This document shows positions 10,476 through 39,764 of a stretch of DNA of 39,764 nt, in pieces. Each line of letters starts with the position of its first letter. The stretch's first letter is position 1. Origin of the DNA: a virus; the UHGV virus genome UHGV-0145637; one strand, given 5' to 3'. The position numbers and the translations under genes were made by a program. Under the pieces are notes generated by a model. The model searched no databases and was not told the origin of the DNA. It saw nothing but the letters and a program-made list of their open reading frames with translations.

Positions 10476-10976
10476 ATGCCAAAACTCCCCGCACCCCTGC
10501 GTAAAAAGCTGATTGCCCTTGTTCTGGCCGGAGCCGGGACGTTCACCATTGCCACGCACTACACCGGCTACTGGGAAGGGAAAGAAAACACCACGTACAT
10601 TGATCCCACCGGCACCCCCACCATCTGTTACGGCCATACCGGCCCGGATGTGAAACCGGGGATGACAAAAACTGATGAAGAGTGTCTGGAGCTGCTGGAA
10701 AAGGACATGAAATGGGCCTTTGCGGCTATCGATCGTCATGTTCAGGTGCCGCTTACCCGTGGTCAGACGGTGGCGCTGGCCTCCTGGATTTTCTGGGCCG
10801 GTGAAACGAACTTTCGCAACTCCACGCTCCTGTGCCTTATCAATGCCGGGCAGATGCCCGCGTCCTGTAAGCAGTATATCCGCTGGATTTATTCAAAGGG
10901 GGTAAAACTCCCCGGTCTTGAGGCCCGCCGTTCGGCGGATGAATGGTTATGTCGTTACGATTTGCCGAAAGTCTGA
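10476..10976 (+). CDS. Endolysin, phage lysozyme type with SAR-like N-terminal segment
   Basis: Gly/Ala-rich weakly hydrophobic N-terminus (LIALVLAGAGTFTIA) followed by E-x8-D-x5-T spacing (EGKENTTYIDPTGTPT). Confidence 0.7.
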   Translation: MPKLPAPLRKKLIALVLAGAGTFTIATHYTGYWEGKENTTYIDPTGTPTICYGHTGPDVKPGMTKTDEECLELLEKDMKWAFAAIDRHVQVPLTRGQTVALASWIFWAGETNFRNSTLLCLINAGQMPASCKQYIRWIYSKGVKLPGLEARRSADEWLCRYDLPKV

Positions 10977-33964: not shown

Positions 33965-34537
33965 ATGCTGATTGGGTATATCAGGGTGTCAACAAATGAC
34001 CAGAATACGGCGCTACAAAGAAATGCGCTGGAATGTGCAGGATGTGAGCTGTTTTTCGAAGACAGAATAAGCGGTAAGACAAGGGAGCGTCCCGGACTTA
34101 AACGCGCATTAAAGCGACTCCGGCCAGGGGATACCCTGCTGGTCTGGAAACTGGATCGCCTTGGACGCAGTATGCAGCACCTTGTCCTTTTAACAGAAGA
34201 ACTCCGGCAACGCGGCGTTAACTTCCGCAGCATTACGGACAATATTGATACATCCACTCCCATGGGACGTTTCTTTTTCCATATAATGGGCGCGCTGGCG
34301 GAAATGGAGCGGGAACTCATTATTGAACGTACACGCGCGGGTCTTGCTGCTGCCCGTGCTCAGGGGCGTCATGGCGGCAGACCTCAGAAACTGACAGAGA
34401 AAGAGCGGGAGCAAATCGCCCGTTTGCTGGCTAATGGCGAGTCCCGTAAACAAATCGCACTGATATTTGATATTGGCCTTTCCACCCTTTATCGTTATTT
34501 TCCTGCCTCACCAGCTCCGTCACCAAAAGTACCGTGA
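33965..34537 (+). CDS. gin: Serine recombinase DNA invertase (Gin/Hin/Cin/Pin family)
   Basis: MLIGYIRVSTNDQNTALQRNAL... with catalytic-serine motif and C-terminal HTH; near-colinear with Mu Gin as recalled. Confidence 0.9.
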   Translation: MLIGYIRVSTNDQNTALQRNALECAGCELFFEDRISGKTRERPGLKRALKRLRPGDTLLVWKLDRLGRSMQHLVLLTEELRQRGVNFRSITDNIDTSTPMGRFFFHIMGALAEMERELIIERTRAGLAAARAQGRHGGRPQKLTEKEREQIARLLANGESRKQIALIFDIGLSTLYRYFPASPAPSPKVP

Positions 34538-34622
34538 CGCTTTTTTGAATTTCCGCAAAACACATATTTTTCAGCGGTCGCTATTCTGACTCTGTTTAAT
34601 TCAGAAACAGGCAGAAAAGACG

Positions 34623-36677
34623 ATGTCAGACTCCAAGTGGAAAATGCTCTCCGCCATGCCCGGAGAGTTTTCAGTCAAGGTTGCCGGTGGCACGGTGGCA
34701 TTTATTGAAAGCCCTTTCCGCCCTTCGGGTAATAAAGGGGGGATCACCTTCGCAGACTGCGTGATCCGCTTCAGCACGAAAGAGCCATTATGGGTAATGC
34801 CGGTATCCGGTAATCCCAGTGCAGAAATCACCAGTTCAGGCGTGACTGGCATCATTCCAATCACATCTGACGTGGCCGGAACGCTCACGCCCTCCGACTG
34901 GAATGCACCGGATAACGCCGGGCCTTCCGGTAGCACGAATGGCAGCAGTTCAGAGCCGGAATATTACTTTGTTGTCATTCTCGCGGGTCAGTCAAATGGC
35001 ATGGCCTACGGCGAGGGGCTGCCGTTACCGGATTCGTTTGACCGCCCGGACCCACGCATTAAGCAACTGGCACGCCGCAGTACGGTAACGCCCAACGGTA
35101 CGTCGTGTACATACAACGACATCATTCCGGCAGACCACTGCCTGCATGATGTTCAGGATATGAGCGGGATAAACCACCCGAAAGCTGATCTGGCAAAAGG
35201 CCAGTACGGGACTGTCGGTCAGGGGTTGCATATTGCCAAAAAACTGCTTCCCTATATCCCACAGAATGCCGGGATACTTCTGGTGCCCTGTTGTCGTGGC
35301 GGGTCAGCATTCACCACTGGAGCCGACGGCTCATTCAGTGAGGCCAGCGGTGCTTCCGCTGATTCTTCACGCTGGGGGGCCGGTAAACCTCTGTATCAGG
35401 ACCTGGTAAGCCGCACCAAAGTCGCGCTGGCGAAAAACCCGAAAAACAAACTTCTGGCTGTGGTCTGGATGCAGGGAGAGGCAGACCTTGCCTCAGGAAG
35501 CCAGCAGCATAATAGTTTATTCACGGCCATGGTTCAGCAGTTCAGAACTGACCTGGCTCCGCTTGCTGCGCAGTGCGTGAGTGGAAATGCCACCACGGTG
35601 CCGTGGATTTGCGGTGATACCACGTATTACTGGAAAAACGCTGGCACCGATAAATATGAGGCAGTATACGGTGGCTACAAAGGCAAGGAAGCACAGAAAA
35701 TTTTCTTTGTACCGTTCCTGACGGATGAGAATGGACAGAGCACGCCAACGAATGCTCCGGCGGAAGACCCGGATATTGTGGCTGTCGGGTATTACGGTGC
35801 AGCATCCCGAACCCAGGGCAGTTTTGTTTCGACACAGCGTGACAGCCATTTCAGCTCATGGGCACGCAGGGGCGTCATTTCAGACCGTCTGGCCTCAGCT
35901 ATTATGCTCCATGCAGGGCGCACGGCTGAACTGATGCGCGGGCAGACCGTGACACCACCGGATGAGAAGCCGTCACCTGATACACCATCAAAACCGTCCA
36001 CGCCACCCGCAGACACCACGACGATGAGTACGCTATTTGCTTACCGGGCATCTGAGTCTGAAGGACGGTTGACACCACAGGGTTGGGCTGCCGGAGGTGG
36101 CAAGGCTCAAATCGTGGATGATGCCGGAGCCAGCGGGGGTAAGGCAATGAAACTGACCAAGGAAACAGGAAGAGCCCCCTGGTACCTTGAGCATGATGCT
36201 GGTAATGGTGCGGACCTGCTGGGTAAAGGTGGTCTTGTCAGTTGTCGTTTTAAACTCGATGGCGCGCTTACGGCTAATCAGTACGCACTGGCGCTGTACT
36301 GGCCGGTTTCTGCCCTGCCGCAAGGGGTTACTCTGGAAGGAAATGCCGGTCATAACCTGCTGGCATCGTTCTACGTACAGAGCGATGCCACAGACCTTAA
36401 CGTGATGTATCACAAAGGAAACACGGCGCAGAACACGAAGCTGGGGTCATTCGGCGCATTTAATAACGAATGGCATACGCTGGGCTTCCGTTTTGCCGGT
36501 AACAACAGTATTGAGGTGACACCGGTCATTGATGGTAAGGACGGGACACCATTCATGCTGTCGCAGTCTCCGGTCGGCACGTTTACGGCAGACAAGTTGC
36601 GCGTGACCGATATCACTAAAAATGCGACTTACCCGGTACTGATTGACAGTATCGTGGTGGAAGTGAATAACGCGTAA
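34623..36677 (+). CDS. SGNH-type (sialate-O-acetylesterase-like) esterase domain protein with Pro/Thr linker and C-terminal beta-rich domain
   Basis: Motifs VILAGQSNGMAYGEG and VVWMQGEAD; linker PPDEKPSPDTPSKPSTPPADTTT; about 210-aa C-terminal domain; no N-terminal signal peptide. Confidence 0.5.
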   Translation: MSDSKWKMLSAMPGEFSVKVAGGTVAFIESPFRPSGNKGGITFADCVIRFSTKEPLWVMPVSGNPSAEITSSGVTGIIPITSDVAGTLTPSDWNAPDNAGPSGSTNGSSSEPEYYFVVILAGQSNGMAYGEGLPLPDSFDRPDPRIKQLARRSTVTPNGTSCTYNDIIPADHCLHDVQDMSGINHPKADLAKGQYGTVGQGLHIAKKLLPYIPQNAGILLVPCCRGGSAFTTGADGSFSEASGASADSSRWGAGKPLYQDLVSRTKVALAKNPKNKLLAVVWMQGEADLASGSQQHNSLFTAMVQQFRTDLAPLAAQCVSGNATTVPWICGDTTYYWKNAGTDKYEAVYGGYKGKEAQKIFFVPFLTDENGQSTPTNAPAEDPDIVAVGYYGAASRTQGSFVSTQRDSHFSSWARRGVISDRLASAIMLHAGRTAELMRGQTVTPPDEKPSPDTPSKPSTPPADTTTMSTLFAYRASESEGRLTPQGWAAGGGKAQIVDDAGASGGKAMKLTKETGRAPWYLEHDAGNGADLLGKGGLVSCRFKLDGALTANQYALALYWPVSALPQGVTLEGNAGHNLLASFYVQSDATDLNVMYHKGNTAQNTKLGSFGAFNNEWHTLGFRFAGNNSIEVTPVIDGKDGTPFMLSQSPVGTFTADKLRVTDITKNATYPVLIDSIVVEVNNA

Positions 36678-36821
36678 GCAGGATAAAAAAATGCCGCCGG
36701 TAAGGGAAAACAAGAAACCGGCGGCAAAAAGATCGTTATATCCAAAGCAAAAAATGCAGTGCACCTTTTTACCTAACAGATATTACCGGTGTCAACACCA
36801 TGTCAATAATTGGGAGGGATA

Positions 36822-37004
36822 ATGACATTTTTACAGCTTATTTTATTGTATTTCTGCACGGCAGTATGTGCGTTATATCTGGTGAGTGGTGGTTATAAGG
36901 CCATCAGAAATTATGTTCGCCGCAAAATTGAGGACGCAGCAGCTGAAAAACTCAGTAAAACAGCGCAGGTAACTCCGCTCCCAAAAGACCCGACCCAGCC
37001 CTGA
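36822..37004 (+). CDS. Small membrane protein, 60 aa
   Basis: GGGAGGG RBS 5 nt before ATG; MTFLQLILLYFCTAVCALYLV hydrophobic helix then charged tail. Confidence 0.45.
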   Translation: MTFLQLILLYFCTAVCALYLVSGGYKAIRNYVRRKIEDAAAEKLSKTAQVTPLPKDPTQP

Positions 37005-37039
37005 TTGCAGGGCTTTATTCCCGCATAAGGAGGATATAC

Positions 37040-37294
37040 ATGCCAGAAATTAAAGGCACCGTCACTGAAGACCTGGTAAAACAGGCACTGTATTCCGGTG
37101 AAGTAAATAAGTTGCTGAAAGCGCAGGTCCGCAAGGATTTTGAGGCACAAATCGACACTTACGTTGATGAAGTGCTGGCAAAACTTATTGGGCCAGCAGT
37201 TGCGGCCAGTGATGCTGATAATGAGCCGAAAACCGACGCGCAGCCAGAGCAACCAGACCCGGCTCAGCCCGGAACTGACAGTACCATGATGTAA
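37040..37294 (+). CDS. Small acidic hypothetical protein, 84 aa
   Basis: Strong AAGGAGG RBS; acidic Pro-rich C-terminus; hairpin AAACCGG...CCGGTTT downstream. Confidence 0.5.
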   Translation: MPEIKGTVTEDLVKQALYSGEVNKLLKAQVRKDFEAQIDTYVDEVLAKLIGPAVAASDADNEPKTDAQPEQPDPAQPGTDSTMM

Positions 37295-37461
37295 CAATAC
37301 AAACCGGTGGTGTCCTCTGCCGGTTTGACACTAATGAAAACATCTTTGCCGCTATCCAGCCATATGTAATCGCTGGATAGTATTTCGTATTCAGAAATAT
37401 AGCTGCTTATGGAGCAGTCAATCCTGCTTCCCCATCCGGGCAGGCAAATGAACCGGTATCA

Positions 37462-37755
37462 TTAGTCCGATTCACGCTTTTGTAGAATCGTTCCCAGAAT
37501 GCTATACAGCTCATTAGCCTGTTGCTCCATCATTGAGACGGAGGCTATACGGTGCAAAGTGATTTCAGGAGGTGGCACACCTCCATCTTCTTGCTGTGGA
37601 GGAAAAACATAAGATTTAATAAAAAAGTTGAAGCATATGAACTCTCCCGCACTCGAACTGTATTTGCAGGCATCTGAATAATCGGAAAAATAATCATTAT
37701 AGATTTCCGCATTTTCAATCATTTTTCGATTTCTCGTCGTTACATGATTGTCCAT
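37462..37755 (-). CDS. Hypothetical protein, 97 aa, antisense to neighbours
   Basis: TAAGAGG RBS, AT-rich, divergent from com-mom across a 255-bp AT-rich region. Confidence 0.45.
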   Translation of the reverse strand: MDNHVTTRNRKMIENAEIYNDYFSDYSDACKYSSSAGEFICFNFFIKSYVFPPQQEDGGVPPPEITLHRIASVSMMEQQANELYSILGTILQKRESD

Positions 37756-37877
37756 AGCAGCCTCTTACGCTGGCAATTAACCAATTGACTTCTATAAATT
37801 AGTTGATTTGTTTGCTTTGCGGTATTCAAATGTACAATCATTCAGCACTTATGCGTTACAGCACCGTTTAAAATTAG

Positions 37878-37964
37878 TGATCAAACTCATAAATTTTCGC
37901 TAATGACATTTCGTGTTATTTGTTGTATCAATTAAATAAATCAAATCGATCGTTTTTGTCGATC
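37878..37964. promoter_or_regulatory. GATC cluster with inverted repeat upstream of com-mom
   Basis: GATC at 37878, 37948 and 37961; the last two lie in the palindrome AATCGATCG-TTTTTGT-CGATCGATT, about 50 bp before the com start. Confidence 0.5.
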
Positions 37965-38011
37965 GATTGAGTGATAAAGATATCAACAACAAAGCAGGAG
38001 GTTATGCGGCC

Positions 38012-38212
38012 ATGTATCGAAACATACGGTGCCGACATTGTAACAAGCTACTGGCACGAGCCAGCTTCAGTTATCTGGAAGTTAAATGTCCGCGCTGTAA
38101 AACCCTCAATCAAATCACATCTCAGAGCGCCACAGAGCACCCCACATACACAAGGAAATCCTGTCGTGGGGAACAGAAAGCAAGTTACATCCCGTATCAT
38201 CAGCACGCCTGA
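38012..38212 (+). CDS. com: Com zinc-finger translational activator of mom
   Basis: [10 protein letters not shown]...EVKCPRCK matches the Mu Com zinc finger as recalled (IRCKNCNKLL...IRCPRCK); GCAGGAGG RBS; start at the internal Met of the track ORF. Confidence 0.8.
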
Positions 38213-38903
38213 ACTTATTCACTATAACGACAATATCGTCGGTTATGGCTCCCGTGAGTTACGGGTTGAGACAATAAGTTGCTGGCTGGCCCGGCTGGTC
38301 GTCGTCAATAAACATTACAGCCATCGTTTCGTAAATAATTCCTACCTTCATCTGGGCATATTTTCAGAACGGGAGCTGGTTGGCGTAATGCAATGGGGTT
38401 ATGCCCTTAATCCAAACAATGGTGCACGCGTCGTAACTGGCACGCAGAACCGCGAATATATGGAGCTTAACCGGTTATGGCTGCATGACTGTATGCCGAG
38501 AAACTCCGAATCAAGGGCAATCAGTTACGCGCTCAAACTAATCAGACAACTTTATCCGCAGGTGCAGTGGGTTCAGTCGTTTGCAGATGAGCGTTGTGGC
38601 TGTCTTGGTGTCGTGTACCAGGCAAGCAATTTTGATTATGTAGGCAGTCATGAAACAACATTCTATGAACTTGATGGCGAGTGGTATCACGAGATTTGCA
38701 AGAATGCAATCAAACGAGGAGGACAGCGAGGTGAACATCTGCGGGCTAATATCGACAGAGCCAGTGTTCATAAATTCCGTCAGTTTCGTTACATCCGGTT
38801 TCTGGACAAGAGAGCCAGAAAACGCCTTAACACAAAGCTATTCAAAGTCCAGCCTTACCCAAAACCACAAACAGTTAAAACTGGTTTGAAAGAGAGTGAA
38901 TGA
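38166..38903 (+). CDS. mom: Mom-like DNA modification protein
   Basis: 246-aa frame beginning inside the 3' end of com (GTG at 38166 with AGGAAA upstream), as in Mu; assigned by position and size only. Confidence 0.55.
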
Positions 38904-38944
38904 ACGCTTAAAAACTCATTCTAAAACTCAAAAGAAAAGCGCCG

Positions 38945-39036
38945 ATTTAGTATCAAATAAGTTGCGTATCGGCGTTTTTCAGCGGTATCAAATGAAATGC
39001 AAATCGGTATCAAAAAAATCGCCGCGCTATAATACA
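38945..39036. repeat. Right-end region with three GTATCAAA repeats (attR-like) and putative terminus ...TAATACA
   Basis: GTATCAAA at 38950, 38985 and 39007; reverse complement of the terminus begins TGTATTATAGCG. Confidence 0.5.
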
Positions 39037-39735
39037 TGCGCTTGCTTGCGCACTCCAGCGCCAGCTGTTTGATGTCGTAGTTCGGATCGCCTTTTTTATG
39101 GTTCAGACCATCGCGAATCGCAAACACCAGTTTCGGGAACACCGCAGTTTTACGGTTTTTACCGAGGCCTGCGATACGGTTACGCAGGATAGATTCCTGA
39201 ATCAGGCGCGACTCCCAGCTGGTGCCCAGACCAAAACCAAAGGTTACAAACGGCGTCTGACCGTTGGCGGTGTGCAGGGTGTTTACTTCGTACTCCAGCG
39301 ACTGGAAGGCATCGTAGCACTCTTTAATGGTACGAGAGTTAGCGTAGCCTTCGGCGTCCGGGATGTTCCACTCTTCTGCGGTCTTGCGATGTTTGTTGTA
39401 GCTGGCGGTAACAAACGGCGCCAGCACTTCATCGATACGGTTAATGGTGGTGCCGCCATAAATATGGCTGGCGACCTGAGCAATAATCTGCGCAGTTACC
39501 GCGGTTGCCGTAGAGATCGACTTCGGCGGTTCAATCTCGGCGTTCCCCATCTTAAAGCCCTGGGTCAGCATGCCTTTCAGGTCGATCAACATGCAGTTGA
39601 ACATCGGGAAGAACGGCGAGTAATCGAGATCGTGATAGTGAATATCGCCACGCTCATGTGCCTGCACCACGTCACGCGGCAGCAGGTGCTGACGTGCATA
39701 GTGTTTAGCCACGATCCCGGCCAGCAGGTCGCGCT
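39037..39735 (-). CDS. nrdD: Host anaerobic ribonucleoside-triphosphate reductase, 5'-partial and interrupted at the phage junction
   Basis: Minus-strand translation AKHYARQHLLPRDVVQAHERGDIHYHDLDYSPFFPMFNCMLIDLKG... resembles enterobacterial NrdD as recalled; the frame runs out of the contig and degenerates on entering phage DNA after ...ECASKRMY. Confidence 0.6.
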
Positions 39736-39764
39736 CTGTCTCTTATACACATCTGACGCTGCCG
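39736..39764. other. Nextera adapter read-through (library artefact)
   Basis: CTGTCTCTTATACACATCT (reverse complement of the Tn5 mosaic end) followed by GACGCTGCCG. Confidence 0.9.

Follow-up and report, generated by a model that had tools for sequence, protein, structure and literature searches.

What are the three small genes of mixed orientation that lie between an esterase gene and com-mom at the right end of the prophage in UHGV virus genome UHGV-0145637? The window, that is, the whole stretch of 39,764 nucleotides that was analysed, holds a complete Mu-like transposable prophage with repressor and transposase genes on the left and gin, com and mom on the right, and its gin-com interval holds a gene for a 684-aa esterase followed by three small open reading frames (ORFs), here called A, B and C. 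The original prediction had read these ORFs as one AT-rich block flanked by two hairpins, and as typical of superinfection exclusion, toxin-antitoxin (TA) or abortive-infection cargo. The ORFs, their orientations and their Shine-Dalgarno (SD) sequences are as it described, and the AT-richness is equally clear, with a GC content of 0.47 in 36678-37328 and 0.40 in 37329-37902 versus 0.55 in the esterase and prophage body. Both hairpins are real too (z -4.4 and -4.1), the second lying at 37300-37327 and not at 37309-37334, but they do not flank a single block: the first is probably part of a minus-strand unit located between the esterase and A, and the second forms the divide between two modules that are inherited independently. 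We thus lean towards reading the region as a composite, made of the 3′ part of an esterase module (36678-37328) and of a cargo slot (37329-37902). The first module would have the order esterase, antisense small RNA gene, DUF1378 (ORF A), DUF826 (ORF B) and terminator, and transcription would run rightward through the esterase, A and B as a single unit, up to the 37300-37327 hairpin. The parts of this module are as follows.

34623..36677, plus strand: NanS-p-type sialate O-acetylesterase of 684 aa (Pfam SASA and DUF6645), head of the module with A and B
36685..36760, minus strand: predicted Hfq-type small RNA of ~76 nt, antisense to the esterase-DUF1378 intercistronic RNA; 5′ end inferred, 3′ end at the U7 run
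36692..36726, minus strand: intrinsic terminator hairpin (first hairpin), stem 36726-36718/36700-36692, U7 at 36691-36685
36766..36795, minus strand: promoter-like site, -35 TTGACA (36795-36790), 18-nt spacer, -10-like TAAAAA (36771-36766)
36822..37004, plus strand: ORF A, DUF1378 family, 60 aa, SD GGGAGGG at 36812-18, predicted single-pass membrane protein with N-out/C-in topology
37040..37294, plus strand: ORF B, DUF826 family, 84 aa, SD AAGGAGG at 37027-33, acidic and soluble
37300..37327, plus strand: terminator-type hairpin (second hairpin) that closes the esterase-A-B unit and forms the left boundary of the slot; dG -16.7, z -4.1

The original prediction had found no recognisable domain in any of the three proteins, which does not hold for A and B. 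In profile searches, where the curated cut-off is 25 bits for both families, ORF A scores 109.4 bits for Pfam PF07125 (DUF1378; E 9.4e-32), its residues 1-58 aligning with positions 1-58 of the 59 in the model, and ORF B scores 58.7 bits for PF05696 (DUF826; E 6.4e-16) over residues 1-57; they belong to PHROG 494 and PHROG 311 (E 4.9e-28), respectively, two families without an assigned function. The sensitive homology search that had been proposed for all three proteins therefore placed A and B in Pfam and PHROG families, while C matched only its own family in Escherichia and Shigella. The segment 36600-38000 is 100% identical in 14 complete E. coli genomes, where RefSeq annotates A and B as DUF1378 and DUF826. 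The pI of ORF A is 9.3; its single hydrophobic helix spans residues 3-21, residues 1-24 are uncharged, and five Lys/Arg residues lie in 25-36. The motif LYFCT.V..LYL.SGGY..R is invariant in DUF1378, and this unusual conservation of its transmembrane helix suggests a specific contact within the membrane. ORF B has a pI of 4.2 and a net charge of -8.5, and its AlphaFold2 (AF2) model consists of helices at 10-17 and 20-50 followed by a disordered Pro/Glu-rich tail, with a predicted local distance difference test score (pLDDT) that is 82-94 for residues 11-50 and falls under 55 at residue 51 and beyond. A PDB profile search with ORF B gave no match, and the model, essentially one long helix, is uninformative for a fold search. 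No paralogues of A, B or C were found elsewhere in the prophage. A hairpin in the A-B spacer (36997-37014) was considered as an attenuator and set aside, as it occurs in only some variants.

In Shiga toxin (Stx) phages and other lambdoid phages, the nanS-p to S interval (933W, VT2-Sakai, Stx2a_F451, PhiR12_4) shows the same order of esterase, DUF1378 and DUF826, and the wider arrangement, in Stx and non-Stx lambdoids alike, is Q ... esterase, DUF1378, DUF826, holin S, endolysin R and Rz, within the Q-dependent late operon. The only paper that we found to mention the two families gives them as unknown ORFs between nanS-p and S (PMC10462455). As in the window, the esterase stop codon of this interval is followed by a GC-rich hairpin preceded by an A-run, and a terminator stands after DUF826. 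The window and lambdoid proteins share ~55-66% amino-acid identity for the esterase and ~52% for A, whereas the B proteins are too diverged for tblastn to link them. In the window, in contrast to the lambdoids, the module lies between gin and com/mom, outside a Q-dependent late operon and with no adjacent holin or endolysin; this placement, with the slot and com/mom after B and an endolysin-like gene at 10476-10976, is common to 28 IMG/VR loci. A and B are thus ordinary members of two known DUF families, and the module is a variant placement of the nanS-p to S interval.

The association of A and B with the esterase was assessed in 80 IMG/VR loci carrying DUF1378, comprising 51 lambdoid loci, with S next, and 28 Mu-like ones, and by gene counts in 50,697 phage records. 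An esterase gene lies upstream of DUF1378 in 70/70 loci with enough upstream sequence, in three of them displaced from A and probably interrupted, and DUF826 is present in all 69 loci with enough downstream sequence. The window has the same order, esterase-DUF1378-DUF826, with all three genes on the plus strand. The phage records gave these counts.

Esterase: 347 phage records
DUF1378: 309 phage records
DUF826, lambdoid type: 306 phage records
DUF826, Mu type: 2 phage records
S21-type pinholin: 427 phage records

The organism breakdowns of the esterase, DUF1378 and DUF826 record sets agree, which points to nested sets. The pinholin occurs in more records, some of them without A and B (for example 434, cdtI and JLK-2012), and so it works without them. 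A scan of genome contigs for DUF1378 returned only two loci and little taxonomic breadth, and A/B were found on a plasmid in one of 378 E. coli places. From these distributions A and B appear to depend on the esterase and not on the holin, and the esterase does not appear to depend on A and B. Selection was estimated within the Mu-like lineage, where dN/dS is 0.14-0.30 for A, 0.085-0.16 for B and 0.10-0.14 for the esterase. Both small genes are under purifying selection, to a degree comparable with the esterase, though the lysis gene is ~26 kb distant.

The esterase itself is well defined, with residues 110-428 matching NanS (PDB 3pt5, E 1.8e-117) and residues 469-683 matching the NanS-p C-domain (PDB 6yp6, E 7e-98). 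Its N-terminal ~110 aa (34623-34950) have no match to DUF1737 or to any other Pfam family and no paralogue in the prophage. In this it differs from the phi24B esterase, which is reported to decorate the capsid and whose DUF1737 N-terminus binds the capsid hexons (2026 preprint). By analogy, the different N-terminus may be a different virion-attachment domain, and is compatible with re-targeting of the enzyme to another virion.

The first hairpin is strongly stable on both strands relative to shuffled controls (dG -19.7 and z -4.4 on the plus strand, -22.8 and -5.1 on the minus strand). On the minus strand its 10-bp GC-rich stem is followed by U7, whereas on the plus strand it is flanked by A-runs, and it is therefore not a plus-strand terminator. 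Upstream of it on the minus strand lies the promoter-like site, with a second TTGACA at 36806-36801. The pattern TTGAC-N19-TAAAAA occurs once in the window, on both strands together, where 0.01 occurrences are expected. About 40 nt of U-rich sequence separate TAAAAA from the hairpin, and the U7 run ends 8 nt from the esterase stop codon. Folding of an 80-nt predicted transcript gave dG -23.6 and z -4.1, with a U-rich single-stranded body, the terminator stem and U7, which is the typical layout of an Hfq-dependent small RNA (sRNA). A comparison of 109 loci yielded 34 distinct esterase-DUF1378 spacers, and in 31 of these the strand opposite the esterase carries TTGAC[A/T/G], 17-18 nt, TAAAAA, a body of 72-103 nt, a GC hairpin and U5-8. 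Among the bodies there are at least five sequence types that cannot be aligned with each other, and the pairing of the terminator stem is kept through compensatory changes across the variants. The -35 box corresponds to a plus-strand TGTCAA just upstream of the DUF1378 start that is invariant in every variant. We consider it likely, from these signals, that a small RNA gene exists here. An RNA of ~76 nt would be transcribed leftward from its own TTGACA-18-TAAAAA site and would stop at the 36692-36726 hairpin and U7; if real, it is perfectly antisense to the esterase-A mRNA junction. The segment that holds the predicted sRNA and DUF1378 can be exchanged as a sub-unit, because three IMG/VR loci (L012, L015, L016) match the window in the esterase (100%) and B (99-100%) but differ in A (only 87-88% identical) and in the type of sRNA body.

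A precedent exists in enteropathogenic E. coli (EPEC) E2348/69. PasA is an Hfq-dependent sRNA of 85 nt, encoded on the minus strand (743499-743415) in the interval that separates the esterase gene E2348C_0688 from the following gene (directionality '> < >'; Pearl Mizrahi et al., PMC8550237 Table S6); it was detected by Northern blot and by RNA interaction by ligation and sequencing (RIL-seq), which gave chimeras with the esterase mRNA (PMC8550237). PasA and PasC, with their enterohaemorrhagic E. coli homologues EcOnc51/52, share with the predicted window RNA the position in the esterase-downstream spacer, the opposite strand, a TTGACA box, a length of 70-100 nt and a GC-rich terminator with U7. 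The E2348/69 esterase-holin spacer holds two tandem minus-strand units, each made up of TTGACA, a -10-like box rich in A, and a GC hairpin followed by U7. Of the two, the proximal one (L126, 2470-2580, minus strand) reads TTGACA-18-GAAAAA ... AGCCAGCG/CGCTGGCT and U7, abuts the esterase stop codon and coincides with the end of a 236-nt minor form of PasA; it may be a separate sRNA gene. This esterase-proximal unit is the direct positional counterpart of the window RNA, PasA itself lying ~150 bp further from the esterase, and the PasA loci, unlike the window, lack DUF1378 and DUF826. An Rfam scan of the E2348/69 pasA locus gave no Pas family match. With its own predicted promoter and U-tract terminator on the opposite strand, 3′ of the esterase, the window unit has the PasA/PasC layout, and by position and architecture it would be a new member of this class and, by analogy with PasA, an Hfq-dependent regulator.

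Several observations weigh against the esterase-module reading set out above. For the RNA, the -10-like TAAAAA lacks the usual final T, the body has by eye no clear similarity to PasA or PasC, and four or five loci (L029-L033, L035) have an esterase-A spacer of 70-75 nt without the RNA unit, which is therefore dispensable. The Rfam family Esr41 (RF02676) matches 36683-36765 on the minus strand over its full length, with 22.2 bits against a gathering score of 102 (20.5 bits in the lambdoid locus L007); membership was rejected, as the score is far below 102 bits and the true Esr41 locus lies in SpLE1. The hairpin after B has a poor U-tract in the window. As for A and B, JLK-2012-type and EPEC PP2 esterases occur without them (in JLK-2012 the esterase is directly followed by S), so the esterase does not need them, and their linkage to it could be explained by adjacency alone. 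A 52-aa DUF1378-like ORF with 71% identity over 38 aa is present in a Cedecea neteri prophage (L044, 4797-4952), between a tail-fibre-like gene and a DNA adenine methylase and with no esterase or DUF826 nearby; it is the only clear DUF1378 outside the esterase module among the loci sampled. An E. ruysiae remnant also holds decayed traces of A, B, S and R without an esterase.

The RNA unit might be explained without any sRNA gene if the 36692-36726 hairpin were structural only, either a stabiliser of the mRNA 3′ end or a stop for antisense transcription that protects the esterase. The non-canonical -10-like hexamer, the sub-threshold Rfam matches and the variants that lack the unit all suit this explanation, yet a stabiliser would leave unexplained why a -35 box and an invariant TAAAAA stand 17-18 nt apart and 72-103 nt from the hairpin in spacers that cannot be aligned, and it accounts no better for the single, chance-unlikely promoter pattern in the window. 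PasA, moreover, was detected experimentally in EPEC, on the corresponding strand of the spacer that follows the esterase, and we regard a purely structural hairpin as unlikely. A different role for A and B is suggested by their lambdoid neighbours, since in 51/51 lambdoid loci an S21-type pinholin and a signal-anchor-release (SAR) endolysin directly follow B. The two could then be accessory lysis proteins, for example modulators of the pinholin or the SAR endolysin, carried into the Mu-like phage by their adjacency to the esterase; A, with its N-terminal transmembrane helix and charged tail, is like small lysis regulators, and the Mu-like endolysin at 10476-10976 appears to be of the SAR type, in our reading of its N-terminal sequence. 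Against this, ~120 phage records have the same pinholin family without A and B, the Mu-like A and B lie ~26 kb from the lysis gene and yet experience purifying selection equal in strength to that acting on the esterase, and in both phage types an intrinsic terminator separates B from the next gene. In the window A is not beside the endolysin, and in the lambdoids B, the terminator and the true holin intervene between A and R. We regard a lysis function as improbable.

The reading of the original prediction, in which the three genes form or include an exclusion, TA or abortive-infection cassette with A as the effector and B as its soluble partner, fares worse, and we find it very improbable. 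What speaks for it is the adjacency of a small membrane protein and a small, soluble, acidic one, both with strong ribosome-binding sites, in a relatively AT-rich region at a prophage end. Yet PADLOC-DB 2.0 gave no match for A, C or the esterase and for B only PbeC at chance level (E 0.0076, 12.9 bits), and neither A nor B has a toxin or antitoxin domain in Pfam or NCBIfam. In the lambdoids A and B are late-operon genes, with the esterase before them and holin S after, and in Stx phages nanS-p is a late gene induced together with stx (PMC8065619), so a function expressed in the lysogen does not fit. A and B are, furthermore, almost never apart from the esterase and nearly absent from plasmids, and C is inherited independently of them. 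None of the A/B evidence fits such a cassette; the part of the prediction that stands is that ORF C is accessory cargo, A and B being an esterase-module pair with no defence or TA match. In the esterase-module reading, A would be a single-pass inner-membrane protein with a basic cytoplasmic tail and B an acidic helical cytoplasmic protein. We infer a joint role of the two at the membrane, late in the infection, that is linked to the esterase and not to lysis or defence.

Beyond the second hairpin the sequence changes in character. This hairpin is kept in all Mu-like variants, mostly followed by TTTTATTTT, as a plus-strand intrinsic terminator, and in lambdoid phages a different hairpin with a T-run stands after DUF826. 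Homology between the Mu-like variants stops at 37326-37328 and resumes at 37903 (pairwise blastn), and related Mu-like prophages have at least four unrelated contents in between.

37329..37902, no strand assigned: hypervariable cargo slot between the DUF826 terminator and the com/mom upstream region, delimited by pairwise blastn of variants
37462..37755, minus strand: ORF C, a 97-aa acidic orphan that is the slot cargo in this lineage; SD AAGAGG at 37766-61, 5 nt from the ATG
37903..38011, plus strand: conserved com/mom upstream region, the right boundary of the slot, with 88.6-91.9% identity to every slot variant from 37903 on

The slot contents seen in the Mu-like prophages are the following.

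ORF C
A 175-aa zinc-ribbon/membrane protein, in strain M18
A 64-aa CxxC...CxxC protein, in the Mu-like insertion in O157 Stx phages
A convergent ORF pair, 66-78 aa 'MDKNKKQPDTKGLE...' on the plus strand and 68-76 aa 'MDKLTTDQKLQAARIAAD...' on the minus strand, in L019, L021, L025, L031, L034 and L035

These last six loci also have a minus-strand ORF, 'MIQGGDYLLKENE...', whose start lies within the conserved com upstream region. The alternative cargoes, including the MDKNKKQPDTKGLE, MDKLTTDQKLQAARIAAD and MIQGGDYLLKENE ORFs, have no Pfam match beyond zinc ribbons and none in PADLOC. The second module would thus be a swap-prone slot beside the com/mom control region, which in this lineage holds the orphan C with its own signals.

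ORF C is called by the Prokaryotic Genome Annotation Pipeline as an 86-aa protein starting at 37722; the 97-aa start has the better SD, and the N-terminal extension stays in frame in E. coli CI5. The protein has a pI of 4.7. A word-indexed search of 5.8 billion proteins gave homologues in Escherichia and Shigella alone, in 14 clusters with identities down to 79%, and a phmmer search of 1.84 billion representatives recovered no family but its own. No match was found in phage records (tblastn), Pfam, PHROGs, NCBIfam, PADLOC or a PDB profile search, and the AF2 model, built from a shallow alignment, has a pLDDT of 51 and is unusable. The CI5 orthologue (86.6% nucleotide identity) differs from ORF C by 39 substitutions; 15 are synonymous, against an expectation of 20% (binomial p 0.006), and dN/dS is 0.36. 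ORF C occupies the same slot in 6/6 contigs examined, in prophage copies at different chromosomal sites. A scan for sigma-70 sites gave no convincing promoter for it. A third hairpin, at 37351-37381, which the original prediction had not mentioned, was considered as the terminator of ORF C and rejected, as it is not kept in the orthologous cassette of CI5. ORF C is probably a real cargo gene.

With its flanks, ORF C resembles the phage morons (concept of Juhala et al. 2000, as cited in PMC4104026) in being an AT-rich insert that is present, absent or replaced in near-identical phages and oriented against its neighbours. It shows sharp breakpoints at 37326-37328 and 37903, at least four alternatives and a GC content of 0.40 versus 0.55, but, unlike morons, it has no clearly identifiable promoter or terminator, nor can it be placed in a family or given a function. 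That it is no gene at all, but a frame open by chance in AT-rich spacer DNA, would agree with its being a narrow orphan with a poor structural model, and the frame had a chance of 0.17 of staying open after 39 random substitutions, so that openness alone is weak evidence. This explanation does not account for the synonymous excess relative to CI5, nor for the good SD 5 nt from the ATG and the N-terminal extension kept in frame, and we hold it to be quite improbable. From its location, a role of ORF C in defence or anti-defence is plausible. More specifically, it could be a phage-phage conflict gene, acting in defence of the lysogen or in anti-defence alongside Mom, with the slot as a hotspot like the cargo hotspots of P2/P4-like elements. 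In this sense speak the unrelated small-gene sets, at least four, in near-identical backbones, the position of most slot genes on the strand opposite the late genes, the proximity of mom, an anti-restriction DNA-modification gene, and the acidity of C. On the other hand, C and the alternative cargoes lack homology in PADLOC, Pfam and PHROG, the structure model cannot be relied on, no promoter is clearly predicted and selection is only moderate, which leaves a conflict function possible but doubtful.

The surroundings of both modules follow the phage Mu plan. In Mu only a short spacer separates gin from com. The window shares with the Mu right end gin, com and mom in the same order and orientation and GATC sites upstream of com, here at 37948 and 37961, and differs by ~3.4 kb of extra DNA between gin and com, namely the esterase module and the slot.

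33965-34537: gin, at the prophage right end
38012-38212: com, at the right end
Ending at 38903: mom, at the right end (Pfam Mom)

The order (gin)-esterase-A-B-slot-com-mom is found in all Mu-like loci with both flanks in view. Among Mu-like relatives com and mom are 94-100% identical in amino-acid sequence and the esterase 53-100%. Because com and mom are near-constant, the esterase is variable and the homology breaks at the slot are sharp, the right end is a mosaic with a sharply bounded swap site.

Some further features of this end were observed. E. coli CI5, M3 and M18 (L002, L003, L004; ~1700-2010) lack gin, of which only the last ~29 codons persist as a remnant before the esterase gene. 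A hairpin with T6 at 34518-34546 overlaps the gin stop codon, and 12 nt separate the esterase start from a 19-nt element (CTGTTTAATTCAGAAACAG, 34592-34610) that contains the inverted repeat CTGTTT/AAACAG. Conservation of this repeat and of the sequence around it extends to the gin-less variants and to the Sp18-like lineage, in which the esterase has only 67% identity, and the element may be a control site for the esterase unit. In E. coli JE86-ST05 com is annotated as frameshifted (L001, 5413-5612), whereas it is intact in the window, the segment 36600-38000 being identical in both, as it also is in DLI.5a. A minus-strand ORF at 38921-39712, presumably the anaerobic ribonucleotide reductase NrdD from its translation, adjoins the prophage right end, with the junction near 39030-39040. 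Its C-terminal residues come from phage-end DNA, and the host gene appears to be interrupted by the prophage insertion; related prophage copies occupy many other chromosomal sites. The window ends (39736-39764) with CTGTCTCTTATACACATCT followed by GACGCTGCCG, which we take to be the Nextera transposase adapter, and this suggests an untrimmed read end at the contig edge.

NanS-p esterases aid the growth of pathogenic E. coli on O-acetylated sialic acids from mucus. In the locus described here, A, B and a PasA-like RNA unit accompany such an esterase into an unrelated type of phage, while the lysis genes stay behind. Since A and B travel with the esterase and the lysis genes do not, there is reason to seek their role with the esterase and not in lysis or defence. 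The sRNA niche beside the esterase, described so far for lambdoid prophages, would likewise be extended to Mu-like prophages. Taken jointly, and as a whole improbable in our view, the esterase, the antisense sRNA, DUF1378 and DUF826 could be one functional unit moved intact between lambdoid and Mu-like phages with only the virion-binding N-terminus changed, in which A and B would handle the signal-less esterase at the inner membrane, for its holding, virion delivery or release, the sRNA would tune the expression of host and module, and C with its slot-mates would mark an unrecognised hotspot of conflict genes beside mom in Mu-like prophages. The site of small-gene exchange beside mom may itself be a target of screens for defence and anti-defence activities. 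The value of the analysis lies in the correct reassignment of the parts and in two leads, A and B as candidate partners of the esterase and a PasA-like sRNA in Mu-like prophages.

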